A DNA stretch of 56,984 nucleotides from the IMG/VR virus record IMGVR_UViG_3300033987_000026. The stretch is one strand, 5' to 3'. Made by a program: the position numbers and the translations under genes. This document shows, one piece after another, positions 7,740-52,616 of the stretch (its first letter is position 1; every line of letters starts with the position of its first letter). This stretch comes from a virus. Under the pieces are notes generated by a model. It had not been told where the DNA came from. It was given only the letters and a program-made list of their open reading frames with translations, and did not search any database.

Positions 7740-8401
7740 ATGGGACCGTTTGTATACCAAGAATCATCGAATGTAGCAGATGTGGCTGCGAATGGAACGT
7801 AAGCAGCCAGGCATACATACCGGAAAGTGGTTATATTTGCCCGCACTGCACGAGCAGAGAGCGAGAAAATAACGCCTTTCAGGAGGATAAGCATATGGCA
7901 AATAGATCACTGCTTCACAGAAGCAAGATAGAGGATTTCAAGAGCTGGCTTCAGGAAGACGGCTGGCAGATAGAACAGCCCAAAGGAATATACGAGGTCG
8001 TAAGGGCCACAAAGGGCACCAGGAAGCCATTAATAGTTTACACGAGGGATAACAAAGGCAATGAGCATATAACCGTTCAGGACCGCGATGTGCCGGTCGT
8101 AAGGGCATACATAAGGGACAGGAGAAGAGAAGCCAGGGCAAAGGCCAACGGGATCCAGAAAGTAACCAAAGAAGAAATGCTGAAGATAATCGACACCAGG
8201 GAGCCACTCGGAAAGTTTTACAGGATAGAAGGCAAGACCATCATCGCAGTGGATAATTCCACAGGAGACGCCTGGACCGAGGAATTCAAAGACTTTGAAA
8301 TTTTCCTTCTGTGGATAACCACACAGCTGACCGTAGAGGATGCGGTAGAAAAAACAAGGAGGAGGAATAAGCATGCAAAATGTGTCAGCATTAGAAATTA
8401 A
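7736..8401 (+). CDS. Hypothetical protein (N-terminal zinc ribbon; strong in-frame internal start at 7895)
   Basis: CSRCGC...CPHC at the N-terminus. AGGAGG RBS precedes in-frame ATG 7895. Confidence 0.55.
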   Translation: MNGTVCIPRIIECSRCGCEWNVSSQAYIPESGYICPHCTSRERENNAFQEDKHMANRSLLHRSKIEDFKSWLQEDGWQIEQPKGIYEVVRATKGTRKPLIVYTRDNKGNEHITVQDRDVPVVRAYIRDRRREARAKANGIQKVTKEEMLKIIDTREPLGKFYRIEGKTIIAVDNSTGDAWTEEFKDFEIFLLWITTQLTVEDAVEKTRRRNKHAKCVSIRN

Positions 8402-16978: not shown

Positions 16979-18379
16979 ATGGCTAACAATAATTTCAGGG
17001 AAATCGGCCGCATCGGACAAAAAAGATATGGTGGCTTTTTCTATGAGGAATTCCTGAAAGATCTCCAGGGAAGGAAAGGCGTCGAGGTTTACAAAGAGAT
17101 GAGTGAGAACGACGATGTAATCGGCGCAATCCTTTATGCGATCGAGATGTTAATCAGGCAAGTATCCTGGATGGTTCAACCGGGAGGACCCACAGCAAAG
17201 GATGAGGAAGCTGCAGAGTTCATCTACCAATGTATGGACGATATGCAGGATACCTGGACCGATACCATATCGGAAATCCTTTCATTCCTGACATATGGAT
17301 GGAGCGCTCACGAAATCGTGTATAAGAGGCGCGCCGGCAAGAGTAAGGATCCGCGACTAAACAGCAAATACAGCGATGGTCTCATAGGATGGCGCAAGCT
17401 GCCAATCAGAGCCCAGGAAACCCTCTGGGAATGGATATACGACGATGAGGACAATCTCCTCGGAATGATCCAGATGCCACCGCCAAAGTATGAGCTCATC
17501 ACGATACCGATTGAAAAACTCTTAATCTTCAGAACCAAGAGCAGGAAAGGCAGCCCGGAAGGAAAGAGTATTCTCCGTAACGCATATCGCAGCTGGTACT
17601 TCAAGCGCAGGATCCAAGAGATAGAGGGAATAGGTATCGAAAGAGATCTGGCTGGTTTCCCGGTATTGACAGCTCCGGAAAGAATGAATATCTGGGACGA
17701 GGACGACCCGGAAATGGAAGCAATCAGGATGGCTGCTGACAGGATCGTTCAAAACATAAGGCGAGACAGCATGGAAGGCTTGACATTACCGGCTGGATGG
17801 AAACTGGAACTATTGAGCACAGGAGGACGCCGCCAGTTTGACACTAATGCAATCATTGAAAGATACGACACCAGGATAGCAATGACCGTCCTGGCCGATT
17901 TCATTTTGTTAGGTCACCGGAAGGTGGGTAGCTTTGCATTATCCAGCGACAAGACGGAACTCTTTGCAATGGCCGTCGGAGCTTATCTGGACATTATCTG
18001 CGAGACTTTCAACAACAAAGCAATCCCGGCGCTGATTGATTTAAACGCTCAACACTTCGCAGGTATTACCGATTATCCGACACTGCAGCACGGAGACATT
18101 GAAAGCGCAGACATTCAGGCTCTGGCTTCTTACATCAAGGATATGACTGGCGTCGGTGTGCTGGTACCGGACGACCATCTCGAAGATTACGTGAGAGAAG
18201 TGGCCGGCCTGCCAGAAAGGCTGGATGATGGAACTAACCCAAGGCAGCCAAGACCGGCACGGAACAACAATTCTGATGTGAAGCCAGGCAAAGAGGCAGA
18301 CAACGACAACCTGGGAGATTTGGAGGACGATGAGGAAGCTGTAAAGAAGGCCAAGGAACGACTGGGGAGGTACGATTGA
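16979..18379 (+). CDS. Portal protein (DUF935 / Mu gp29-like)
   Basis: Size, position and YKEMSENDDVIGAILYAIEMLI-type N-terminal region. Followed by the MuF gene. Confidence 0.8.
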   Translation: MANNNFREIGRIGQKRYGGFFYEEFLKDLQGRKGVEVYKEMSENDDVIGAILYAIEMLIRQVSWMVQPGGPTAKDEEAAEFIYQCMDDMQDTWTDTISEILSFLTYGWSAHEIVYKRRAGKSKDPRLNSKYSDGLIGWRKLPIRAQETLWEWIYDDEDNLLGMIQMPPPKYELITIPIEKLLIFRTKSRKGSPEGKSILRNAYRSWYFKRRIQEIEGIGIERDLAGFPVLTAPERMNIWDEDDPEMEAIRMAADRIVQNIRRDSMEGLTLPAGWKLELLSTGGRRQFDTNAIIERYDTRIAMTVLADFILLGHRKVGSFALSSDKTELFAMAVGAYLDIICETFNNKAIPALIDLNAQHFAGITDYPTLQHGDIESADIQALASYIKDMTGVGVLVPDDHLEDYVREVAGLPERLDDGTNPRQPRPARNNNSDVKPGKEADNDNLGDLEDDEEAVKKAKERLGRYD

Positions 18380-21300
18380 TGTTCAGGATCCGGAAATCAA
18401 TACACCTGCACCCGATATACAAGGCAAAAAAGAAAAGCAAAGCAGCACAGGAGGTCCTCGATAAATTAAATGCCTTCCTGGATGCAACGGAGCCCGAACC
18501 GGTGTTTTTCCTCACCAGGCTATGGAAGGACCAGCAGCAGGCCATAACATATAAGGAATTAAGAGAGGCAATTCTCAACGGTTACATCGACGAAAAGACC
18601 ATCCAGGCCTGGCAGAACGACTACGCGAACTTTGTGAACGAGCATCTGAAACCTTTATGGATAGAGGCTATGCAGGCAGCCAATGAAGATTTGATGGCAG
18701 CACATCCGGAATATTTCTTCGACCCAATGAGCCAGGGTGTCCTTAAGTGGATCAACGAACATGGAGCACAATGGGTAACGGTAATAGCGGAGGAGCAGAA
18801 AGAAGCAATATCGGCCATGCTGCAGCATGCATACAGCGGAGCCTTCACCGTTGACGAGCTGGCCAGAGCGATCCGTGCGACGATAGGCCTGAATAAGGTC
18901 CAGGCCAAGGCCAACCTGAACTACTATCAGCATGTGAAGAAAACTCTCCTGGAAAACAACCCAGGCATGAAGGAATCAACGGCCCAGAAAAAAGCCCAGG
19001 AGGCAGCAGCGAAATACGCGGCCAAGCAGCATAGGCAAAGAGCTTTCACTATAGCCACAACTGAAATGGCCTTTGCTTACAACAAGGGAGCTGACGAAGG
19101 CATAAAGCAGGCCCAGGAGCAGAACCTCATAGGCAAGGTGGTGAAAGTTTGGAGCACAGCTGCAGATGAAGGTGTATGCTCTATATGCGGAGCGTTGGAC
19201 GGCGTCGAAGTGGAAATGGGCGCTGATTTTGATTTCAAAGGCAACGAGCTATACAGCGGCCAGAAGGAAACCCCACCGGCGCATCCACGCTGCAGATGCG
19301 CGCTGCTTTATGTAGAGAAGGAACCGCCGAAATATAAGACGGTGCCTGATCAAGAAGTGATCCAGAACTGGAACCCGGAAGATCAGATGCCGACACCGGA
19401 GCCTCCGGACCCAGCAAAACCAGTGATACCGCCGGCGGAGAAAATGCCACCAGGCATGAAATACAAAGGAAAAGCAAACCTCGGAGGAACCGGAGAAATG
19501 CACTTATACGTCGATGAGACCGGCCAGGAATGGCTATTCAAACCGGCACAAAGCAAAGCTGGAAAACCAGAAGCCTTCAGGGCATACGTCCAGGAGGCCG
19601 GATATAAGGTCCAGGCGATAATAGATCCAGACACAGCGGTACCGGTAGGAACTGGAGAACTGGGCGGCAAGTTTGGAGCCTTTCAGAAGAGAATAACCAC
19701 CGTCAACGACAAGATAGACCTGAAGCACTGGCAATACACCAGCGACCAGCTGCCACCGGGAACAGCCGCACAACTACAGAGAGAGCATGTAACCGACTGG
19801 CTACTGGCCAACTTTGACAGCCACGGTGGCAATTTCGTAATGGACGACGCCGGCAGGCTTATAGGAACAGACAAAGAACAGGCCTTCAGGTACATCAAGG
19901 AAATAGGCGCCCAGCAGATGAGCTACACATACCACCCAAACGCAACCTACGGGGAAACAGAGCCGATTTATAATACCTTATTCCGGAGGTTTGCAAAGGG
20001 AGAAATAGATCTGGATCTGCAGGATACATTGACTTACATCAAGAGAGTGGAGGCAATCCCAGATAACCAGTACCGGGAAATATTCAGAGACTATGCCGAA
20101 GCTCTATATGGGAAAGGCAAAGAAGCAGAGGAGCTGCTGGACCTGATCGTCGAGAGAAAAAACCGGTTAAGAGAAGACTACCGTCAATTTTTCAGCGACC
20201 TTCTCACAGAGCGAACCGGTAAAAAACAAGTGTTCGTCTGGGCAGACGAGGCTGCAGAGCATATGAAACAGCCACTAACGGCAGTAACACACAGCCCGGA
20301 AACCCTGCAAAAGATGAACATGGCAGAGCTTAAGCAACTGGCCAAACAAAAGCAGATCCCATACTACAACAATATGAATAAGACCCAGCTGATAACAGCT
20401 ATATCGGACCCGGTAAAAGCACCAGAAATGAGCGCCCAGGTAAGAAATAGGCTGCTGGCCAACGAGGCAGCCAGGAAAGCTGCAGCAAGAACACCAGCAG
20501 CGCAGAAGGCCAAAGAAATCGTATCTGCAGATGAAATATTCAAAGACGCCTCAATCATTCCGGAGAAAAAACTGGGCATTCCGGTCAGGAGCGACAAGGG
20601 CAGCGTTGAAGGCCTCAATTTAACGGCCAGGAGGATGCGCATATTAGACGACGCAAGCGGTACCGAATATGAGGTATACGAAATATCCGGAAAACTCACC
20701 AGGGAAGCATGGTCCAAGACATGGGATAAAATGAAGCCAATAGGAGAAATAGGAGAGCTGGAATTTGAGCTTGCAGACGATGTCAAAAAGCTCTTTGCTT
20801 CCAAGGCGGACCTCGGAGCTTCCATCCGGACCATAAAGGTAACCGACGGAGAAACCACATTCGAGCTTTATATCGATGGCCAGACAAGGAGATACAATGG
20901 ATGGCGTGGTTTTTTCAGATTGAGAACTCCGGTAACCTCAAACGGAGCTGCGGACGCTGCAAATATGAGAAACATGCTGCAGAAGCTGGAGCTTGATGAT
21001 CTTTTATTGAAACCGGACAGCGAGGCAGAAACGATCCTCAAAAAGAGCCGGCTTGTATGGCAACACGCTCCACATCGTATCCAGGAATTAGATGGTTTGA
21101 CGCCAGAGCAAATACCGATTAAACTGGATATGATATTAAAGCAAGAAGGAATAGACCCGAAGCGTATAAATAACATGAAGCTGGTTAAAGTCTTCGAAGG
21201 CTATTCAACTTATGTCGAAGAGGGCATCGTGGAAACATACAAGAAGGCAGGCCTGAAATATGTCTGGACCGGAGTTCCGGACGGAGACGACATCGTGAAG

Positions 21301-21798
21301 ATCATCCAAAGCCCTGGCCTGATGTCAAATAACAACCGTTTCAGGGCAGGATTGAGGCGCACAGGAGCAAGTCCGGTAGAAGACTTCCGGACCGGCGGCA
21401 GCGATAATGTATTCACCAGGATAGGCGTCAAGAATAAGAACAACCCAAGATTTGACGACTGCTACCGAGGGAACCGATATCGCATTCTTATTGATCCAAA
21501 AGTCATGGAGAGAACCGACTGGTATGCATATGAAGGAGACTCGTTCGGAAGCTCGGATCCGTCGGCACTGGCCGGCAGGCTTTCGCCGGTGGAATTTATT
21601 CAGAGAATGGCCACAAGCTACCGGTACGGGAACGAAATCATGTTCAGGCACGGAATAGCTAAGGAGACATTCATCGGGATATCATGCCAGAGCAACGCGC
21701 TCCGAGCAGAGCTCCTGGAGAAGTTCAAACAGGCGCATATTACTGCAGTAAACGGGATACCGATAGAAGATTTTGTAAAGGTGGGATCTACGATATGA
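18376..21798 (+). CDS. MuF/SPP1 gp7-like head morphogenesis domain fused to a large multi-domain extension (polyvalent virion protein)
   Basis: MuF motif KVWSTAADEGVCSICG...PPAHPRCRCAL (aa 256-310). Pro-rich linker. Kinase-like LFKP...DSHGGNF...GTDKE (aa 361-580). SAP/Rho_N-like aa 646-678. Unassigned C-terminal ~440 aa. Confidence 0.85.
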   Translation: MMFRIRKSIHLHPIYKAKKKSKAAQEVLDKLNAFLDATEPEPVFFLTRLWKDQQQAITYKELREAILNGYIDEKTIQAWQNDYANFVNEHLKPLWIEAMQAANEDLMAAHPEYFFDPMSQGVLKWINEHGAQWVTVIAEEQKEAISAMLQHAYSGAFTVDELARAIRATIGLNKVQAKANLNYYQHVKKTLLENNPGMKESTAQKKAQEAAAKYAAKQHRQRAFTIATTEMAFAYNKGADEGIKQAQEQNLIGKVVKVWSTAADEGVCSICGALDGVEVEMGADFDFKGNELYSGQKETPPAHPRCRCALLYVEKEPPKYKTVPDQEVIQNWNPEDQMPTPEPPDPAKPVIPPAEKMPPGMKYKGKANLGGTGEMHLYVDETGQEWLFKPAQSKAGKPEAFRAYVQEAGYKVQAIIDPDTAVPVGTGELGGKFGAFQKRITTVNDKIDLKHWQYTSDQLPPGTAAQLQREHVTDWLLANFDSHGGNFVMDDAGRLIGTDKEQAFRYIKEIGAQQMSYTYHPNATYGETEPIYNTLFRRFAKGEIDLDLQDTLTYIKRVEAIPDNQYREIFRDYAEALYGKGKEAEELLDLIVERKNRLREDYRQFFSDLLTERTGKKQVFVWADEAAEHMKQPLTAVTHSPETLQKMNMAELKQLAKQKQIPYYNNMNKTQLITAISDPVKAPEMSAQVRNRLLANEAARKAAARTPAAQKAKEIVSADEIFKDASIIPEKKLGIPVRSDKGSVEGLNLTARRMRILDDASGTEYEVYEISGKLTREAWSKTWDKMKPIGEIGELEFELADDVKKLFASKADLGASIRTIKVTDGETTFELYIDGQTRRYNGWRGFFRLRTPVTSNGAADAANMRNMLQKLELDDLLLKPDSEAETILKKSRLVWQHAPHRIQELDGLTPEQIPIKLDMILKQEGIDPKRINNMKLVKVFEGYSTYVEEGIVETYKKAGLKYVWTGVPDGDDIVKIIQSPGLMSNNNRFRAGLRRTGASPVEDFRTGGSDNVFTRIGVKNKNNPRFDDCYRGNRYRILIDPKVMERTDWYAYEGDSFGSSDPSALAGRLSPVEFIQRMATSYRYGNEIMFRHGIAKETFIGISCQSNALRAELLEKFKQAHITAVNGIPIEDFVKVGSTI

Positions 21799-22130
21799 TA
21801 GACCAAAGAGCTGTATACGTCTTCAAGCCACCGGGAGAAAGAGATTTCACCGGGATAGCGCTGGATGTTCACATTCACAAAGAGGCCCTCCGGTTCTTTG
21901 ACACCAACAGAGGACACGAGCTGCCAGGCAAAGTAACCCAGGAGACAGACAATGGATTTACATTCACATCAACGGGAATCATCCAGGGAGAATGGCAGTT
22001 CAAAGTTCTGGGAATTGGAGAGTTTAAGCGGAAATATTTCAAACTGGTCGAAGGCGGGCAAGCGCTGGCGGCCAAGCTACAAACCACAGAGGACCTCCAC
22101 CAATGGTATCGGAGGGAGTTCAAGATTTAA
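21795..22130 (+). CDS. Hypothetical protein translationally coupled to the MuF-fusion gene (candidate immunity/partner)
   Basis: ATGA start/stop overlap at 21795-21798. 111 aa with no recognised motif. Confidence 0.6.
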   Translation: MIDQRAVYVFKPPGERDFTGIALDVHIHKEALRFFDTNRGHELPGKVTQETDNGFTFTSTGIIQGEWQFKVLGIGEFKRKYFKLVEGGQALAAKLQTTEDLHQWYRREFKI

Positions 22131-46554: not shown

Positions 46555-46980
46555 ATGAAAGAGATACTCACAACCATAATCCAGGTCGTAGTTATTCCGG
46601 CCATTCCGGTACTGGTTACCTACCTGGTGAAATACCTGAAGGCCAAGGCAGATCAGACCACGACCAAGATCAATAACGAGCTCGTCAGGACATATCTTCA
46701 GGAAGCAACAGACGCAGTCCTACAGGCCGTCACTTATACGGCCCAGACATATGTCGACACCCTCAAGAAACAGGGCAAATTTGATAAGGAAGCCCAGGAA
46801 AAAGCATTTAACACAGCAAAAGACATAGCTCTCAAATTGCTCACGGACGAGGCCAAACAGATGATAGAAGACCTATATGGAGACCTCATGCTCTGGCTTG
46901 AAACCAAGATAGAGCAGACCGTGAAAGAGCAAAAGACCTTCGCCGCCATAGGAACGCTGGAGACGTTCCCGGATGAATAA
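46555..46980 (+). CDS. LL-H family holin-like protein
   Basis: N-terminal TM, then YLKAKADQ...TYVDTLKKQGKFDKEAQEKAF pattern resembling LL-H holins. Confidence 0.7.
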   Translation: MKEILTTIIQVVVIPAIPVLVTYLVKYLKAKADQTTTKINNELVRTYLQEATDAVLQAVTYTAQTYVDTLKKQGKFDKEAQEKAFNTAKDIALKLLTDEAKQMIEDLYGDLMLWLETKIEQTVKEQKTFAAIGTLETFPDE

Positions 46981-46990
46981 CACAAACAAG

Positions 46991-47028
46991 GACCGCCAGA
47001 TATTCTTCATATCTGGTGGTCTTTTTTA
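46991..47028 (+). terminator. Rho-independent terminator ending the late operon
   Basis: 13-bp stem GACCGCCAGATAT / ATATCTGGTGGTC (one G-T pair), then TTTTTT. Confidence 0.8.
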
Positions 47029-47057
47029 TTGACTATTAACCAACGGCAGTTTATAAT
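47029..47057 (+). promoter_or_regulatory. Consensus sigma-70-type promoter of the accessory operon
   Basis: TTGACT (47029-34), 17-nt spacer, TATAAT (47052-57). Confidence 0.65.
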
Positions 47058-47088
47058 GTTCTCAAGTATTGAGAAGGAGGAGTTAACC

Positions 47089-47367
47089 ATGACGAAACAA
47101 GAGTTCAAAAATCTCACAAAGCGAGAATTCACCGACAAAGAGTATGAAGCAATAGAAACTGTTTATACATTCCACCCGGCCATAAGCGAGACAGAAGGCA
47201 AGAAGCAGATCGCCAGCCTTTATGACACCTTCGGGTTCAGGATAATAGCCGACATGCTGCCGACGGCAATTAAAGCAAAGGAACTCGAGGAACAAATAGC
47301 CCGGAAAAAGCACGAGCTGGAAGAGCTCCAGGAAGAGTTTAAAAGATTAAAGAACCCAAACATATAG
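47089..47367 (+). CDS. Hypothetical protein (92 aa)
   Basis: GAAGGAGG RBS before ATG 47089. Confidence 0.55.
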   Translation: MTKQEFKNLTKREFTDKEYEAIETVYTFHPAISETEGKKQIASLYDTFGFRIIADMLPTAIKAKELEEQIARKKHELEELQEEFKRLKNPNI

Positions 47368-47473
47368 CAACCGGCGCCTTGATAGGTGCCATGCCCGCAG
47401 AGCCTGCCGCCTCCACGCGGCGCGGGTGGATAACCAACCAAGAGCAGGCAAAACAACACAAGGAGGAAAGAAC

Positions 47474-47800
47474 ATGGGATACAGAAACGAGTGGTACGGA
47501 ACCAAGAAGGAACTTATAGAGCTTGTAGAGCGCTGCATCGAAGACATTCAGGTGGATATGGATATTAGAATCAGCACCAGAGACATGCGGAAACTTTTCT
47601 GTGAAGCATTCACCAGGAACATAGTGCAGAACGAATTAAGAGAGATGATGGCATACATCATCGATGAAGAGGAGAAAGAAGAAGGCGAACAGAAGTGCAG
47701 AGTTTGCGGCTGCACCCAATACAACGCATGCGAAGACGGCTGCTACTGGGTAGAAGAGGATCTGTGTAGCAAGTGCGCAGAAAAGATGAAGGAGGAATAA
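47474..47800 (+). CDS. Hypothetical protein with C-terminal Cys-rich motif
   Basis: AAGGAGG RBS. CRVCGCTQYNACEDGCYWVEEDLCSKC. Confidence 0.55.
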   Translation: MGYRNEWYGTKKELIELVERCIEDIQVDMDIRISTRDMRKLFCEAFTRNIVQNELREMMAYIIDEEEKEEGEQKCRVCGCTQYNACEDGCYWVEEDLCSKCAEKMKEE

Positions 47801-47802
47801 TC

Positions 47803-48063
47803 GTGGGGAAACCTTACTACGAGCTGGACCAGGAGACCCGGAACATCATCCTGGAGCTCCAAAAGAAATGCATTGAACTGGACCTGGGGAATGTTAGCTT
47901 TCATTACTACCCTACCAGGACGAGAATGGAGGAAACAGAGTTTTATTTGACCGAGTACAAAGAATACTGGGAGCTTGTCGTAAAACAGCGATGGGCCAAA
48001 ACAGCCGACATTTACAGAATTAAAGACGGAGATATTATTTATCAATATTCAGAAAAGGATTGA
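47803..48063 (+). CDS. Hypothetical protein (86 aa)
   Basis: GTG start after GAAGGAGG. Confidence 0.5.
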   Translation: MGKPYYELDQETRNIILELQKKCIELDLGNVSFHYYPTRTRMEETEFYLTEYKEYWELVVKQRWAKTADIYRIKDGDIIYQYSEKD

Positions 48064-48077
48064 GAGGAGGAGCGGTG

Positions 48078-48230
48078 ATGACCAACGCAGCGGCAATCGG
48101 ATATATGATAAAGGCGGCCAAACAGGCCAAGCTGGACAAGAAAACCATTAAGCAGCTGGAGGCCTTAATGTTGGAAGAGATGGACTTTCACACCGAGGAG
48201 GAGGCAGAGCAGGAATATTACAATTTTTGA
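48078..48230 (+). CDS. Small hypothetical protein (50 aa)
   Basis: GAGAGGAGG RBS. MTNAAAIGYMIKAAKQAKLDKK... Below the track length cutoff. Confidence 0.4.
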   Translation: MTNAAAIGYMIKAAKQAKLDKKTIKQLEALMLEEMDFHTEEEAEQEYYNF

Positions 48231-48242
48231 GGAGGAATGAGA

Positions 48243-49163
48243 ATGAAGAATATAAGAGACAGAATCGCCGGCGCATTGTACGGCGTAGCAATAGGGGACG
48301 CATTAGGAGCTCCCCTGGAGTTCATGAGCAAGGAGGAGATTTCCAGGAAGCATGGCCGGGTAACAGAGATGATCGGAGGCGGCTGGCTGAACGTGATGCC
48401 AGGAGAGATCACCGACGACACACAGATGACCCTGGCAGTAGCTGAAGGAATTATAGAGGACCCGGACAACCCGATTAAGGCCATCGGTAAAAGGTTTATC
48501 GAATGGGCCAGGAGCGGACCGAAGGACATCGGAGGAACCTGCAGCATGAGTATCCGCTGGGCCATCTTCCTGGGCCAAAATGATGCGCCAGACGAAGAGA
48601 AATGGTTCGAGGCAAGTAAATATACCTCCAAAGCAAACGGAGGCCGTAGCGGCGGAAATGGAGCGCTTATGCGCACGGTTTACCCAGGTCTTTATTACAA
48701 GGATTTGCTGATGGCGGTAGAGACGGCCGGAGCCATAGCACAAATGACACACTGGGATAAAAAATCAACAGAGGCTTGTAATTTATACACGGAAATGATA
48801 CACTTAATTATCGAATCGGTTAATAAGGAACAGGCCCTGCAGATTATAAGAGACGTGCTCCAGGGAAGCGAATACTGCCTGGAAACCAGGAAGCAGCTCA
48901 ACCCCACCGGGTACGTCGTGGACAGTTTCAACTGCGTGCTCCACAGCATAGCAGCAACCGGGACCTTTGAGGAGGCCATAATCGAAGCCGCCAATCTTGG
49001 AGGAGACGCAGACACCATCGCGGCCATCACCGGCGGCCTGGCCGGAGCGATATACGGATACAACGAGATCCCGGAAAGATGGATCCAGGCCCTGGATCCG
49101 AAGATCAGGATGCAGCTCGACAAGCTCGTGGACGCAGCAGTAAAGAACAGGGAGGGCAGATAA
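48243..49163 (+). CDS. ADP-ribosylglycohydrolase family protein (DraG/ARH-like)
   Basis: GVAIGDALGAPLEF, GEITDDTQMTLAVAEG, GNGALMR, GGDADTIAAITGGLAGAIYG. Confidence 0.9.
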   Translation: MKNIRDRIAGALYGVAIGDALGAPLEFMSKEEISRKHGRVTEMIGGGWLNVMPGEITDDTQMTLAVAEGIIEDPDNPIKAIGKRFIEWARSGPKDIGGTCSMSIRWAIFLGQNDAPDEEKWFEASKYTSKANGGRSGGNGALMRTVYPGLYYKDLLMAVETAGAIAQMTHWDKKSTEACNLYTEMIHLIIESVNKEQALQIIRDVLQGSEYCLETRKQLNPTGYVVDSFNCVLHSIAATGTFEEAIIEAANLGGDADTIAAITGGLAGAIYGYNEIPERWIQALDPKIRMQLDKLVDAAVKNREGR

Positions 49164-49164
49164 C

Positions 49165-49422
49165 ATGGCAGGATACGGCAGACCGTTAAAAGGTAAAACC
49201 AGGCGCGTGCCGATTACGGTACACACGGCCATAGGCATACTTGATATAATCGACCAGTACGTCGAGGAGAGAAACCAGGAAGAGAAGGCTTATTCACGCT
49301 CGGATTTTTACAACGAGGCGGCCAGACTTTACCTGGAACACCTGGGGAGGTTACCTGAAGAGGAAAAGGACCCAGGGGAAAAGGAACCGTACCAAAATCG
49401 TACCGAAATTTTTCAGAAATAG
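49165..49422 (+). CDS. Ribbon-helix-helix-like small protein
   Basis: RRVPITVHTAIGILDIIDQYV...SRSDFYNEAARLYLEHL. ATG lies 2 nt after the ARH stop. Confidence 0.55.
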   Translation: MAGYGRPLKGKTRRVPITVHTAIGILDIIDQYVEERNQEEKAYSRSDFYNEAARLYLEHLGRLPEEEKDPGEKEPYQNRTEIFQK

Positions 49423-49620
49423 AAATAAGGGTGATAATATGAATAATACAAATAATAAAAACCAGTAAAAATCACCCGACATAACACGGGATAATTTTCG
49501 ATTATCGAGTGGGAATAACAGCAAAAAATCCGGAAACCAGCATGAAACCTGGTATTCCGGATTTAATTTTTATGAAATCGTACCAAAAGCGTACCACTTT
49601 TAATTTTTTGACCCTTTTTT
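49423..49620. other. Candidate attP region
   Basis: AT-rich non-coding stretch next to the integrase 3' end. Flanked by CGTACCAAAA(T/G)CGTACC at 49388-49404 and 49579-49595. Small inverted repeats inside. Confidence 0.4.
49523..49572. terminator. Bidirectional terminator-like hairpin between convergent operons
   Basis: AATCCGGAA..CCAG / CTGG..TTCCGGATT stem flanked by an A-run and a T-run. Confidence 0.65.
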
Positions 49621-50772
49621 CTAATTTTTTGAGATTTCTTTTTCTACTTTTTCGAGATCCAAAACGACTGCAGAAGGACTTTCATTTTTGATGGTAGCAT
49701 GCCGATTTAGATCAGCAGCAACCTGCTCCATCTTGTTTGGATACAGATGTGCATAGGTAGACATGGCCACCTCGACAGTATCGCCCAGGCGCTCGGCCAC
49801 AGCCACGATGGAATAACCCAGCTCAACCAGCAAGGCAGCATGAGAATGACGGAGATCATGAACGCGGATCCGTTTCACGCCGGCAGCCTTGGCCGCCTCA
49901 TTGAGAGCACGCCCCAGAGTTCCCTTCTGGAAGTAGAATATACGGTCGTGCTCGTCGATATCATACAGAGCATTGATATACCGCATGACCTCATCATAGA
50001 GGAAATCAGGCATTGAGACATCCCGGTAACTGTTGTCGGTTTTAGGAGGCCCGTTCTTATCCTGGCCTTTGCGCCGGTGGTGAGTTTTTTCAATGCGGGC
50101 AATCTTTGAGGGAAGGATATCGGCAGGCTGCAGAGCGAGGCACTCGCCTTCACGGAGGCCCAGCCAGTACATGAGCATAAAGGCAACACGGAAGCTCCAG
50201 TTTGTGACGTAAGCCATGGCCTGGTTAAATTCAGACAAGGTCCAGAATTTCATCTTCCCGGCCTTCTTTTTACCCATGAAGCCGGCAGGATGGCACGGAT
50301 TAGACTTCAGGTTATAGAACTTAACCGCATAATTGAAAATGGCCGACAGCCGGCTATTTAACGACCGGATATAGGTTTCAGAATACTTTTTACCGGTCCG
50401 AGGATTTATGGCAGACATGACGGTGTTCTGCCAGTTCCGGATCGTCACGGCGTCAATTTCATTCACCGGGAGCTCACCAAAGTAAGGGAGCAGCCACTTG
50501 TCGATGATGGAATCCTGCGTGCCCTGCGTACCTTCCCGGACACGATGCTCGGCGTCGGCCCGGTACAATTCCACCAGGGAGGCAAACGACATTTCACAGT
50601 TCCGGCTATTCTTCAGGAGAAATTCACGCTCGAAGGCCAGGGCATCTGATCGTTTATCGAACCCTTCTTTTTTCTTTTTTCGTCTCTTCCCAGTCCAATC
50701 AGTATACCAGAAGGCAGCAAGCCATTTTATAGCTCCGCTTTTAGTTTTGTATTTATAAACAGGCAATCGCAT
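49621..50772 (-). CDS. int: Tyrosine recombinase (phage integrase)
   Basis: HDLRHSHA...MSTYAHLY catalytic region. AAGGAGG RBS before ATG at 50772. Confidence 0.95.
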   Translation of the reverse strand: MRLPVYKYKTKSGAIKWLAAFWYTDWTGKRRKKKKEGFDKRSDALAFEREFLLKNSRNCEMSFASLVELYRADAEHRVREGTQGTQDSIIDKWLLPYFGELPVNEIDAVTIRNWQNTVMSAINPRTGKKYSETYIRSLNSRLSAIFNYAVKFYNLKSNPCHPAGFMGKKKAGKMKFWTLSEFNQAMAYVTNWSFRVAFMLMYWLGLREGECLALQPADILPSKIARIEKTHHRRKGQDKNGPPKTDNSYRDVSMPDFLYDEVMRYINALYDIDEHDRIFYFQKGTLGRALNEAAKAAGVKRIRVHDLRHSHAALLVELGYSIVAVAERLGDTVEVAMSTYAHLYPNKMEQVAADLNRHATIKNESPSAVVLDLEKVEKEISKN

Positions 50773-50831
50773 GCCTCCTTTCACAAAAGCCCCGGCCAGA
50801 AAGCAGGCCGAGGCTTATTTTCATTCGTTAT

Positions 50832-51176
50832 TTATTCGGCTGCAGCGCCAGCCAGAACGTTATTGAAAGCAATTTCCCACTCAAGATATTTAGTAACCGC
50901 AAACTTGTACACTTCGCCGGCCTTCGTTTCAATCACAAGGACGTTATTGCTGAAGCCATGCTTCCCACGAGAGACACCTTTTATATCTTCCAAAGGGATC
51001 TCGAATTCATAATCGCCCTGCGTAAGGTTAACCAGGGCCCCGATGGCAATAATCTTTGAGAGTTTATGTCGGGAATAAATAAACCGACGGTTTGTCAGGA
51101 TCCCGCGCCCGTTTTGCACGTTAAAAGCGCCTTTTACCCTATTAGCAAGGCCTTCCATGATGATTTTTTCCTGCAT
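50832..51176 (-). CDS. Bacterial PH/GRAM-like small protein (lysogeny-module cargo)
   Basis: GILTNRRFIY...IPLEDIKGV...VLVIETK pattern. Location between int and the repressor. Confidence 0.45.
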   Translation of the reverse strand: MQEKIIMEGLANRVKGAFNVQNGRGILTNRRFIYSRHKLSKIIAIGALVNLTQGDYEFEIPLEDIKGVSRGKHGFSNNVLVIETKAGEVYKFAVTKYLEWEIAFNNVLAGAAAE

Positions 51177-51187
51177 TTCACCACCCC

Positions 51188-51763
51188 CTAAAGATCAGGA
51201 AACAATTCCTTCAAATACTCATAGTTTGCAGGAGACAGAGCCCGTGAAGTCAGAACACCCTGGAGCCAGAGCTCCATCCGGTTCTTGCGGCCACGCTCCG
51301 TTTTTAGCTGCGAAGCCTCTTCCCACGCGTGATCATAGGCACGCTTAAGGGCAGCATTAAATATCTGATCACGACGAGATCTGATATCCCGCAGCTGCGC
51401 TTTAAAATCATTTTGAGCCAGGCCGGCCAAAGCAAGATCAGCGTCCGAGGCCGACGCCAGCTGCTCCAGGAAATATTCCGCAGCAAAGAAACATGTAATA
51501 AACTGCTGAAAAACGAGAGAGGAACTCGCAGCATTAGAGAACTTCACAAAGGCTTCATAAACCCTTACAAGCCGGTGTTCCAGGAAGGATTCGTCCACCC
51601 AGGCAACAGCACACCGGCAACCATCATGTAGCGGAGGCTCCAGGACAGAATGCCCCGCAATTTCAAAAACCTCATCAATCCTCACGGCCGTGCCTTCCAG
51701 TTTAGCACAAAGCGAACAGGTGCAATCGTCGGCCGATGAAGACCACACCTTAAACATACCCAT
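51188..51763 (-). CDS. Stand-alone MuF-type Cys/His motif fused to an unknown helical domain (lysogeny-module cargo)
   Basis: FKVWSSSADDCTCSLCAKLEG...PPLHDGCRCAV parallels aa 256-310 of the 18376 ORF. AGGAGGG RBS. Confidence 0.6.
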   Translation of the reverse strand: MGMFKVWSSSADDCTCSLCAKLEGTAVRIDEVFEIAGHSVLEPPLHDGCRCAVAWVDESFLEHRLVRVYEAFVKFSNAASSSLVFQQFITCFFAAEYFLEQLASASDADLALAGLAQNDFKAQLRDIRSRRDQIFNAALKRAYDHAWEEASQLKTERGRKNRMELWLQGVLTSRALSPANYEYLKELFPDL

Positions 51764-51814
51764 GACCACCCTCCTCTCAATCCCAGAAGATAAAGTACCG
51801 CCGTAATTCGCGCT

Positions 51815-52231
51815 TTAAGCTTTCTCTTTGAAATCAACAACAGGCTCGGAGGACTTGATCTCTTCGAGCGTTTTCAACATGTCAATATATTCTGCGGCCT
51901 TCTCCTTTGCTTCAGGGGAAAGACTTTCAATTTTTTTAATAAGTTCTTTGTCGCCAGACGAAATCGCCTCGGCCATCTTCGGCTTTGACTTCGACGTACC
52001 ACATTTTGAGGATCTGGCTCGACCCATTTCATCGGATAGTCCCAGGATGAAATCGGCGGAGACGTCATAAAGCTCGATAAGAGCCCTAAGCGTTTCAGGG
52101 TCGGGTGTGGTTGCGTTATTCTCGTAGCGAGAAAGGGACTTATTGCTCAAGTTAATCGCCTTGTAGACATCAAGCTGAGTGAGACCTGCCCGTTCTCGAG
52201 CCATACGAAGACGTTCTCCAAAAGTGAGCAT
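51815..52231 (-). CDS. CI-like repressor (XRE-family HTH)
   Basis: FGERLRMARERAGLTQLDVYKAINLSNKSLSRYEN. Divergent from the cro-like gene. Confidence 0.85.
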   Translation of the reverse strand: MLTFGERLRMARERAGLTQLDVYKAINLSNKSLSRYENNATTPDPETLRALIELYDVSADFILGLSDEMGRARSSKCGTSKSKPKMAEAISSGDKELIKKIESLSPEAKEKAAEYIDMLKTLEEIKSSEPVVDFKEKA

Positions 52232-52385
52232 AGAGACACCTCCATTCTAACATTATATAACATTCGCAGGTTTTGAGAAAAAAATTCTCAAAAATTTAGA
52301 AATTCCTATTGACATCTCGGAAATCGAGAATTAAAATAGGATTAGAATTCTCAATAAGTGAGAACACGAAAGGAGGTTGCTAAAC
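52232..52385. promoter_or_regulatory. Lysis-lysogeny switch region: divergent promoters and GAGAA/TTCTC operator motifs
   Basis: Rightward TTGACA (52309-14), 17 nt, TAAAAT (52332-37). Leftward TATAAT (complement of 52252-57). GAGAA at 52275, 52326 and 52360; TTCTC at 52285 and 52348. Confidence 0.7.
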
Positions 52386-52616
52386 GTGAAGCCAATGCAT
52401 CAGAGGCTCCGAGAATATCGCGAGAGCAAAGGCGTAACCCTTACACACATAGCCAAGAAGACCGGCAAGACCGTTCAAAGGATAAGCGCGCTGGAAATAG
52501 GCGCAATCCGGCTGACGGTCGACGAATTCGAGGAGCTTTGTGTGAATGGCTACGAAGTCAACCCTGCAATTTTTTTTACGGATCAGTTCTCTAAAAATGA
52601 GAACATCAAGCCGTAA
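52386..52616 (+). CDS. Cro-like XRE-family HTH regulator
   Basis: AAAGGAGG RBS. LREYRESKGVTLTHIAKKTGKTVQRISALE. Confidence 0.8.
   Translation: MKPMHQRLREYRESKGVTLTHIAKKTGKTVQRISALEIGAIRLTVDEFEELCVNGYEVNPAIFFTDQFSKNENIKP

Follow-up and report, generated by a model that had tools for sequence, protein, structure and literature searches.

An ADP-ribosylhydrolase operon beside attP in a predicted Clostridia phage and its candidate link to a transferase-fold domain of the phage MuF protein

Introduction

A three-protein ADP-ribosylation system has been described in a prophage of Bacteroides stercoris, in which the MuF toxin Bxa ADP-ribosylates arginine, Bsi binds and blocks Bxa, and the ADP-ribosylhydrolase (ARH) BAH reverses the modification (PMC11699363). 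Here we analyze the IMG/VR virus record IMGVR_UViG_3300033987_000026, a stretch of 56,984 nucleotides (nt) referred to below as the window, which holds all three kinds of component: a MuF protein with a C-terminal domain predicted to adopt an ADP-ribosyltransferase (ART) fold, a small open reading frame (ORF) adjoining the toxin-like gene, and an ARH-family hydrolase encoded in an accessory operon (47029-49422, + strand) next to the phage attachment site attP. The ART and the small ORF are adjacent to each other. In contrast to the Bacteroides system, the window ARH lies 26 kb away from the toxin-like gene and belongs to an operon of its own, beside attP, that is apparently repressor-controlled. 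The window MuF protein is a polyvalent protein of 1140 amino acids (aa) with extra conserved domains, its ART domain falls outside the Pfam families and has a predicted DarT-like fold, and the predicted host is a Clostridia-class anaerobe.

Each component also has relatives outside MuF systems. With DraG and Tri1, its best sequence matches, the window ARH shares the ARH fold with its binuclear metal site and a full set of conserved catalytic residues, but it is phage-borne, has no nitrogenase context, scores under both equivalog cut-offs and is without the N-terminal extension of Tri1. DarT enzymes provide the nearest solved folds to the MuF C-terminal domain, which differs from them in having no sequence match to the DarT Pfam family, in being fused to a virion protein rather than acting as a stand-alone toxin, and in its partner eraser, which would be an ARH and not a macrodomain or NADAR protein. 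Like phage morons, the operon stands after the lysis genes and before attP, has its own promoter behind the late-operon terminator and carries mosaic cargo; unlike them, its promoter bears the phage's own cI/cro-type operator over the start site, predicting silence in the lysogen. The NADAR protein AdfN, which counters DarT1 (PMC11825919), is likewise a phage-encoded remover of ADP-ribose that does not adjoin any transferase gene. The window ARH belongs to another hydrolase superfamily, is carried by a temperate phage, and is encoded by a phage that itself has a candidate transferase.

A first-pass annotation of the window, made from the letters alone, had proposed three roles for the ARH: neutralizing ADP-ribosylating host defenses, protecting the lysogen from an effector carried on the phage's MuF protein, should that effector be an ART, or forming a regulatory pair with a ribbon-helix-helix (RHH) protein. 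The second of these is the best supported by our analysis, through a fold model of the ART, the co-occurrence of ART and ARH, and a gene trio in Saccharibacteria. The account we favor, to which we give about an even chance of being correct, is that the ARH is an enzymatic eraser for the phage's own MuF-borne ART, that its operon is wired to the lysis-lysogeny switch, and that the small ORF of 111 aa next to the ART encodes a binding-type partner.

The ADP-ribosylhydrolase

The ARH gene (48243-49163, + strand) encodes a protein of 306 aa that matches all 287 positions of the PF03747 profile (E=3e-65, with 221 bits where the cut-off is 26.2) as well as phrog_6572 (E=3e-63). Its nearest solved structures are DraG of R. 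rubrum (2woc, E=7e-48), DraG of A. brasilense and Tri1 (6dre, E=1e-36). The alignment with 2woc runs end to end, with the motifs PLEF, ITDDTQM, KDIGG and GGDADT in register, and the D97N mutant chain 2woe fixes D97 of DraG as the equivalent of D95 in the window ARH. We take the metal-binding and catalytic residues of DraG to be E28, T59/D60/D61, D97 and D243/D245/T246. Across 27 aligned homologues, with identities down to 53%, the window residues E26, T57-D58-D59-T60, D95 and D255/D257/T258 do not vary. The first-pass annotation had called the ARH motifs (GDALGAPLEF, DDTQMT and GGDADTIAAITG) complete-looking, and alignment bears this out: all metal-binding and catalytic residues are conserved, with no catalytic Asp or Thr missing. 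From this conservation we predict that the protein is an active enzyme and, because all catalytic residues are in place, that it hydrolyzes arginine-ADP-ribose.

Neither equivalog family claims this protein. It scores 220.9 bits for the DraG equivalog TIGR02662, below the cut-off of 337, and 174 bits for the Tri1 equivalog NF041672, below the cut-off of 490, in a match that begins only at profile position 65. The alignment to the 6dre chain likewise begins at residue 70, and the N-terminal toxin-binding extension of Tri1 is missing from the window ARH. Because it falls below both cut-offs and lacks this extension, we place it as a superfamily member of the arginine-type DraG/Tri1 branch that is neither DraG nor Tri1 proper.

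The MuF protein and its C-terminal domain

The MuF protein (18376-21798, + strand; 1140 aa) is encoded after the portal gene and consists of a MuF domain (PF04233; residues 208-310; 38.6 bits against a cut-off of 29.6), a conserved middle domain, a Rho_N domain (PF07498), a beta domain and the C-terminal ART-fold domain (~20980-21795). This architecture is fixed in 155 IMG/VR relatives. We modeled the C-terminal 453 residues with AlphaFold2 (AF2) from 32 homologues, obtaining a predicted local distance difference test (pLDDT) score of 88 and a predicted template modeling score (pTM) of 0.86. When this model was compared with the PDB by Foldseek, the top nine matches were DarT ARTs (probability 0.96-1.0) except for rank 5 (1yem, 0.41), with target-normalized template modeling scores of ~0.5 for the DarT matches; the next matches were KptA, scabin, cholera toxin/LT and PARP, which are also ART folds. 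A sequence search of the C-terminus against the PDB gave no match, leaving the fold search alone as informative, and the domain has no homologue among GenBank phages. In BFVD, the fold matched uncharacterized viral proteins including baculovirus ORF32 and IIV6 422L. A DarT-related ART family has been described in baculoviruses and iridoviruses (PMC9503650) and may include ORF32 and 422L. Across its homologues the domain keeps the invariant motifs GG[AS]DxVFTR, RTDWYAY and NExMFR, consistent with an enzyme. At the level of fold, the MuF C-terminus is predicted to be an ART closest to DarT.

The 111-aa ORF (21795-22130, + strand) overlaps the MuF stop codon (ATGA). In almost every related locus long enough to include this position, an ORF of this family stands 3′ of the ART; it diverges faster than either the ART or the next gene, which encodes the prohead protease. 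By analogy with Bsi, the 111-aa ORF is a candidate for a binding-type immunity or partner protein of the ART.

The middle domain of the MuF protein (19396-20445, residues 341-690) is more conserved than its neighbors, at 53-97% identity across the 155 IMG/VR relatives. Rho_N, at its end, is the only part of it that sequence searches of Pfam or the PDB match. A kinase-like reading of this domain, made by eye from a DSHGGN/DKEQ motif that recalls small-molecule or lipid kinases, found no support in Pfam or PDB sequence searches.

Association of transferase and hydrolase

To relate the two genes across phages, we combined three ART-directed scans with the ARH scans of IMG/VR and counted near-complete contigs, of at least 55 kb, among the matches listed. 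Eleven of the 12 ART-positive contigs carry the ARH, over a range of 33-95% in ART identity. The first-pass annotation had proposed looking for co-occurrence of the ARH with MuF C-terminal domains across related phages, and these counts show it. Two divergent phages have no RHH gene with their ARH, which lies in the replication region 10-13 kb upstream of the ART, indicating that the association of ART and ARH survives relocation of the latter.

A second line of evidence comes from Saccharibacteria contigs, where a family of ~620-aa proteins shares the ART domain (35% identity). Starting from four of these proteins, we found a gene trio in five places: the ART homologue, then an ORF of 120-130 aa, then, convergent to them, a PF03747 ARH of 343 aa. 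The small ORF is homologous to the phage 111-aa family (hhalign probability 92.6%, E=4.6e-7), and the ARH is 29% identical to that of the window. We had also considered a small immunity-like ORF among the four cargo ORFs of the accessory operon (orf1-4, described below), but these show no similarity to the Saccharibacteria small ORF, whose homologue is instead the 111-aa ORF.

Promoter and operators of the hydrolase operon

The operon is preceded by a sigma-70-type promoter, TTGACT-17-TATAAT (47029-47057, + strand), which agrees with the consensus at 11 of 12 positions, directly abuts the terminator that follows the holin gene, and is the top promoter-like site in a 6-kb scan. In relatives this promoter is kept nearly base for base after the holin terminator, though the terminator and the first cargo gene differ; because of this conservation amid different flanks, we regard it as more than a chance match.

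Directly 3′ of the -10 element, and overlapping the predicted transcription start, is a repressor-type operator, TTCTCAAGTATTGAGAA (47059-47075). Its motif, TTCTCR-N5-YGAGAA, matches the window seven times against 0.47 expected, a number reached in none of 100 shuffles. Four of these operators (52263-52364) lie between the gene for a CI-like helix-turn-helix repressor (51815-52231, - strand; PF01381, E=1e-13) and a cro-like gene (52386-52616), one of them inside the spacer of the rightward promoter and another immediately 3′ of that promoter. At the accessory promoter of relatives the operator half-sites are kept while the spacer varies, and more distant relatives have a second operator copy upstream of the -35 element.

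Because a copy of the cI/cro operator covers the start of its promoter, we predict that the accessory operon is off in the established lysogen and on straight after infection or induction. The operon had been described at first pass as autonomous and as occupying a classic moron or lysogenic-conversion slot. The former holds insofar as it has its own promoter, but not in the sense of simple autonomy, since a cI-cro-type operator overlaps the start; the same operator argues against the latter, since it predicts repression in the lysogen.

Other arrangements are seen at the accessory promoters of some relatives. In L046 and L047 the promoter is flanked by TGTCTAT/ATAGACA repeats (L046 3602-3851) in place of the TTCTC/GAGAA operator. 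These repeats may serve a different repressor; in L046, they were not found in the neighboring repressor-like intergenic region. Co-variation of the accessory-promoter operator with immunity type was considered but not demonstrated, as L038, which has other operators, is without any at its accessory promoter, and the L046 repeats are unmatched. A leader, GGATAAAACAG(G)AA...GCG(A/G)CAG, is conserved 3′ of the promoter in the distant relatives L038 (~1255-1275), L053, L054 and L056, though not in the window, and could be a 5′ leader element.

The RHH-like gene and the exchangeable cargo slot

The late (lysis) operon that precedes the accessory promoter ends with a gene, finishing at 46980, that matches the PHROG holin family phrog_13712 (E=3e-36). 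It is closed by an intrinsic terminator (46985-47027, + strand) formed by inverted repeat I1, with a hairpin of 16 pairs (46988-47024) followed by a T-run. Six + strand ORFs follow the promoter, with Shine-Dalgarno sequences and with short or overlapping junctions: orf1 (47089-47367; 92 aa), orf2 (47474-47800; 108 aa), orf3 (47803-48063; 86 aa, with a GTG start), orf4 (48078-48230; 50 aa), the ARH gene, and an RHH-like gene (49165-49422; 85 aa) whose ATG comes 1 nt after the ARH stop codon. The layout given by the first-pass annotation (terminator, promoter, six ORFs, intact ARH, RHH-like last gene and adjoining attP) is present at the positions it assigned, as are the peptide motifs it quoted, including CRVCGCTQYNACEDGCYWVEEDLCSKC in orf2. 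By DNA similarity, the operon region has no match among GenBank phages.

Profile searches of the six ORFs identified the ARH as PF03747. Among orf1-4, only orf1 matched Pfam, PHROGs or NCBIfam, through phrog_31564, whose function is not known, and PADLOC assigned none of the six ORFs to a defense system. In 30 IMG/VR loci found through the ARH, orf1-4 vary even among close relatives while the ARH and RHH genes stay; orf4 is often immediately 5′ of the ARH. From this comparison, orf1-4 are mosaic cargo and not fixed parts of a unit. The C-terminus of orf2 is Cys-rich, with a motif, CxxCGCTxxxxCxxGCxWxxxDLCSxC (47693-47782), that belongs to no Pfam or PHROG family and is seen again, at 53-60% identity, in hypothetical proteins from unrelated phages of Stenotrophomonas, Xanthomonas and Streptomyces. 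In L005, a 34-codon fragment of the ARH 5′ end (8001-8102; 82% identity) lies ~220 nt upstream of a complete ARH gene, a trace of recombination in the cargo slot.

The RHH-like protein belongs to a narrow family of 84 clusters and is a predicted small DNA-binding protein whose fold is assigned from its AF2 model and from weak matches to RHH proteins. In the model an extended segment (about residues 13-20) precedes two helices (23-39 and 45-60) and a tail that is disordered (core pLDDT 82-95), an arrangement that corresponds to the strand-helix-helix order of RHH proteins. Matches to known families are weak throughout: none is significant by profile (MetJ E=0.28, MazE6 E=0.29), Pfam matches come from single members only (HicB_lk_antitox E=0.018, MetJ E=0.091), and the best Foldseek matches, to ParD2, ParB of pCXC100 and TraM, all have E>1.

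Within the promoter spacer and -10 region lies a palindromic element and candidate operator, TATTAACC-N6-AGTTTATA (47034-47055), whose family consensus is (T/A)ATAAACC-N6-GGTTTATA, with conserved arms around six variable central nucleotides. Wherever enough upstream sequence is available, RHH loci of the 'RRVPITVH' type all have the palindrome ahead of them, and it has no match in 1.18 Mb of fetched loci without ARH and RHH. It was not found upstream of the sister RHH type 'RRVP(T/A)TVHIPTG'. It is possibly the binding site of the RHH-like protein.

A search with the RHH-like protein recovered six loci in which it occupies the same position behind the same promoter, palindrome included, with other cargo and without an ARH; IMGVR_UViG_3300028797_000179 is an example of such an RHH-only phage. 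As judged by eye from translations, cargo in these loci includes a large ORF resembling C5 DNA methyltransferases and a PAPS-reductase-like ORF (L053 3074-4906; L054 2907-5410), together with small ORFs. Because palindrome and RHH are constant and the cargo differs, we regard the unit as a frame made up of the palindrome-bearing promoter, cargo and the RHH gene; in the window the ARH is the main cargo. We found no description of cassettes framed in this way, by a promoter palindrome kept at the 5′ end and an RHH gene kept at the 3′ end. The tight coupling of ARH and RHH proposed at first pass does not stand as an ARH-specific pairing, given the six RHH-only loci and the inserts that separate both genes in some relatives, and we dropped the RHH-like protein as an ARH-specific partner on account of the former. 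Pairing is nonetheless frequent across several layouts of the lysogeny module, and a functional link, though not obligatory, cannot be dismissed.

In a different phage type from a Clostridium sp. metagenome-assembled genome (MAG), L101 (7039-8945), a Fic-domain protein (PF02661, E=3e-20) is followed by an RHH homologue and then an ARH. This block adjoins ClpP-like, portal and terminase genes on the opposite strand.

Attachment site and host

The first-pass annotation had placed the operon next to attP, and prophage junctions confirm this. The window is homologous to the integrated prophage L081 as far as 49517 and no further. In L086, a remnant prophage, attL and attR have ATCGAGTGGGA in common, which at attL forms the last codons of guaA (...IEWE*), a gene whose identity Pfam confirmed. 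From these two observations we map the attP core, ATCGAGTGGGAATAA, to ~49504-49518, where it is identical to the 3′ end of host guaA. The core is flanked by two direct copies of CGTACCAAAAKCGTACC, one in the P arm (CGTACCAAAATCGTACC, 49388-49404, + strand) and one in the P′ arm (CGTACCAAAAGCGTACC, 49579-49595, + strand), and the same repeats occur in attL and attR of L086. These copies are likely the arm sites of the integrase, a tyrosine recombinase with an arm-binding domain (49621-50784, - strand; PF14657, PF14659, PF00589; phrog_1). The P-arm copy sits inside the 3′ end of the RHH ORF, which explains why 'RT' codons are conserved in an otherwise variable tail.

A bidirectional hairpin terminator (inverted repeat I18, 49523-49570), with T-runs on both sides, had been taken to end the operon. 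The hairpin exists, but it lies beyond the core, on the P′ side between core and int, and so is not the operon end in the lysogen. Upon integration it moves to the other end of the prophage, and the operon then faces the terminator of host guaA, as is seen in L081.

The closest genomic copies are prophages in MAGs labeled Syntrophomonadales (89%), Oscillospiraceae (74%) and other Clostridia, and the window is probably a temperate phage of anaerobic Clostridia. The remnant L086 (3700-9340 of Bacillota MAG JAKJBX010000009.1) lies between guaA and purE/purC/purF. It has lost the replication, structural and lysis genes and has kept int, a MuF-fragment gene, cI, cro and ARH-RHH, a retention that hints at a benefit to the host from keeping the ARH. 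We rejected the idea that ARH and RHH had moved here as a unit: L086 is what deletion has left of a prophage, and the pair has kept its place at attR.

Interpretation and alternatives

If the ARH is an eraser for the phage's own transferase, the ART would enter the cell together with the DNA, or would be produced late in infection, and would ADP-ribosylate host targets. The ARH, expressed early, would strip this modification, and phage development, the establishment of lysogeny and the producing cell would escape poisoning. Compared with the known kind of MuF toxin with an ARH eraser, the new elements would be an unlinked, repressor-controlled eraser operon and an unrecognized ART family.

Several observations weigh against this account. 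In the window, 26 kb separate the ART from the ARH downstream of it, and the adjacency seen for Bxa and BAH or in Saccharibacteria is missing. The ART is present in all relatives that have the MuF middle domain, so shared ancestry may explain much of the co-occurrence; the RHH-only phages, which would serve as an ARH-minus control, are not among the matches listed in the MuF middle-domain scans. Seen from the other side, 15 ARH-positive contigs reach 55 kb, and the ART was found in 11 of them; the other four may have one that is not among the matches listed. For the ART fold, Foldseek gives marginal E-values (7e-3 to 5e-2), and the MuF C-terminus matches none of the ART families in Pfam. Repression of the operon in lysogens would leave them without protection from superinfecting virions, and the regulation is not universal, as the heteroimmune relative L038 retains promoter and palindrome without the operator. 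Finally, the chemistries do not obviously agree. DraG-type ARHs act on arginine. DarT modifies DNA, and its known erasers are macrodomains and NADAR proteins, not ARHs (PMC11825919, PMC11833690). Given this mismatch between a DarT-like fold and an arginine-type ARH, either the target of the ART is arginine in proteins, in spite of its fold, or the pairing is a new one.

A bolder version of the eraser account takes the second branch. Here the MuF ART, the 111-aa ORF and the ARH would form an undescribed three-part ADP-ribosylation system common to Clostridia phages and Saccharibacteria, in which a DarT-like transferase, possibly directed at nucleic acid, is reversed by an ARH, a pairing not known for DarT-type enzymes. 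The phage would then 'hit and reset', its virion bringing the writer and an immediate-early, repressor-controlled operon the eraser, so that lysogeny is still possible. We think this version unlikely.

Were the eraser account correct, the logic of prophage MuF toxins (toxin, binding immunity and enzymatic eraser) would extend from Bacteroides to Clostridia phages and Saccharibacteria, and the ART would represent a transferase family unseen by current profile libraries. It would also mean that an eraser can sit under the lysis-lysogeny switch instead of beside its toxin, suggesting that a modification brought in by the virion is reversed in a timed manner, which has been an open question since the Alt enzyme of T4. 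The two proteins would make a testable pair for asking what a DarT-like fold does with an ARH partner. The frame of promoter, cargo and RHH is, for its part, a practical marker for accessory genes in this phage lineage.

Two other accounts would turn the ARH outward, against ADP-ribosylation that does not come from the phage itself. We consider it rather unlikely, though worth keeping in view, that an early ARH removes ADP-ribose set by a host defense, or degrades an ADP-ribose-derived immune signal, and that its link to the MuF ART is coincidental. The operator over the promoter predicts immediate-early timing, which suits counter-defense genes; the ARH sits in an exchangeable cargo slot, as anti-defense genes often do; ARH genes are present in many unrelated phages; and orphan erasers directed against DarT are known from phages (AdfN/NADAR, PMC11825919). 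But the absence of a PADLOC match or of a defense ART nearby does not favor this account, and neither do the strong co-occurrence of the ARH with the phage's own ART and the adjacency of both in the Saccharibacteria trio. In the literature we examined, moreover, defense ARTs act on DNA or RNA and are reversed by macrodomain, NADAR or PARG proteins, with no DraG-type ARH among the erasers reported. It is more doubtful that the ARH acts from the prophage, shielding the host from ADP-ribosylating toxins of competing bacteria or phages by a broad enzymatic immunity like that of Tri1. Tri1 is indeed among the nearest solved relatives (6dre, E=1e-36; NF041672, 174 bits), but the equivalog score is far under its cut-off and the toxin-binding extension is missing. 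The operon has its own promoter and a position at the prophage end, the degraded remnant L086 retains ARH-RHH without structural genes, and the promoter of heteroimmune L038 is without the repressor operator, all of which would fit expression from a prophage; in the window, however, the start site is covered by the cI/cro operator, from which repression in the lysogen is predicted.

The remaining two accounts start from the RHH-like protein. It would be improbable, in our view, for this protein to be a recombination directionality factor (excisionase), induced from the repressor-controlled promoter and acting on the attP arms, with the ARH as unrelated cargo. It is a predicted small basic DNA-binding protein encoded beside attP, the 3′ end of its ORF overlaps an arm-type repeat, its identity tracks that of the integrase in close relatives (in L011, ARH 79%, RHH 96% and int 99%), and derepression upon induction would give the right timing. 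Against this, the RHH gene is kept in L041, L043 and L045 without an adjoining integrase and in L275 with a different integrase layout, and the protein has no similarity to known excisionase families. A 70-aa ORF of L275 that had appeared 'Xis-like' was not confirmed by Pfam. Least probable of all is that ARH and RHH form a dedicated two-gene module, whether of toxin-antitoxin type or an enzyme with its own regulator, in which the RHH protein controls or neutralizes the ARH. Their pairing persists down to ~50% ARH identity and through several lysogeny-module layouts, with the gene order reversed in L101 and L294; only 1 nt separates the genes in the window; and the RHH protein weakly resembles antitoxins of the RHH class (MazE6 E=0.29, ParD2 by fold, HicB-like E=0.018), with none of these matches significant. 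Yet each gene is found without the other, the RHH gene in six loci with the same promoter and the ARH in many phages and bacteria; inserts of 190-440 nt part the two in several relatives; and an eraser enzyme is not expected to be toxic.

Genes between int and cI

Two further - strand ORFs lie between int and cI, and both are conserved in relatives. The one nearer to cI (51188-51769), which has also outlasted the decay of prophage L086, encodes a 193-aa protein whose N-terminus is just the C-terminal MuF motif (PF04233, residues 66-111, E=9e-6) fused to a helical domain. It is followed by a 114-aa ORF (50832-51176), and the two might be a second toxin/immunity-like pair, expressed in lysogeny.

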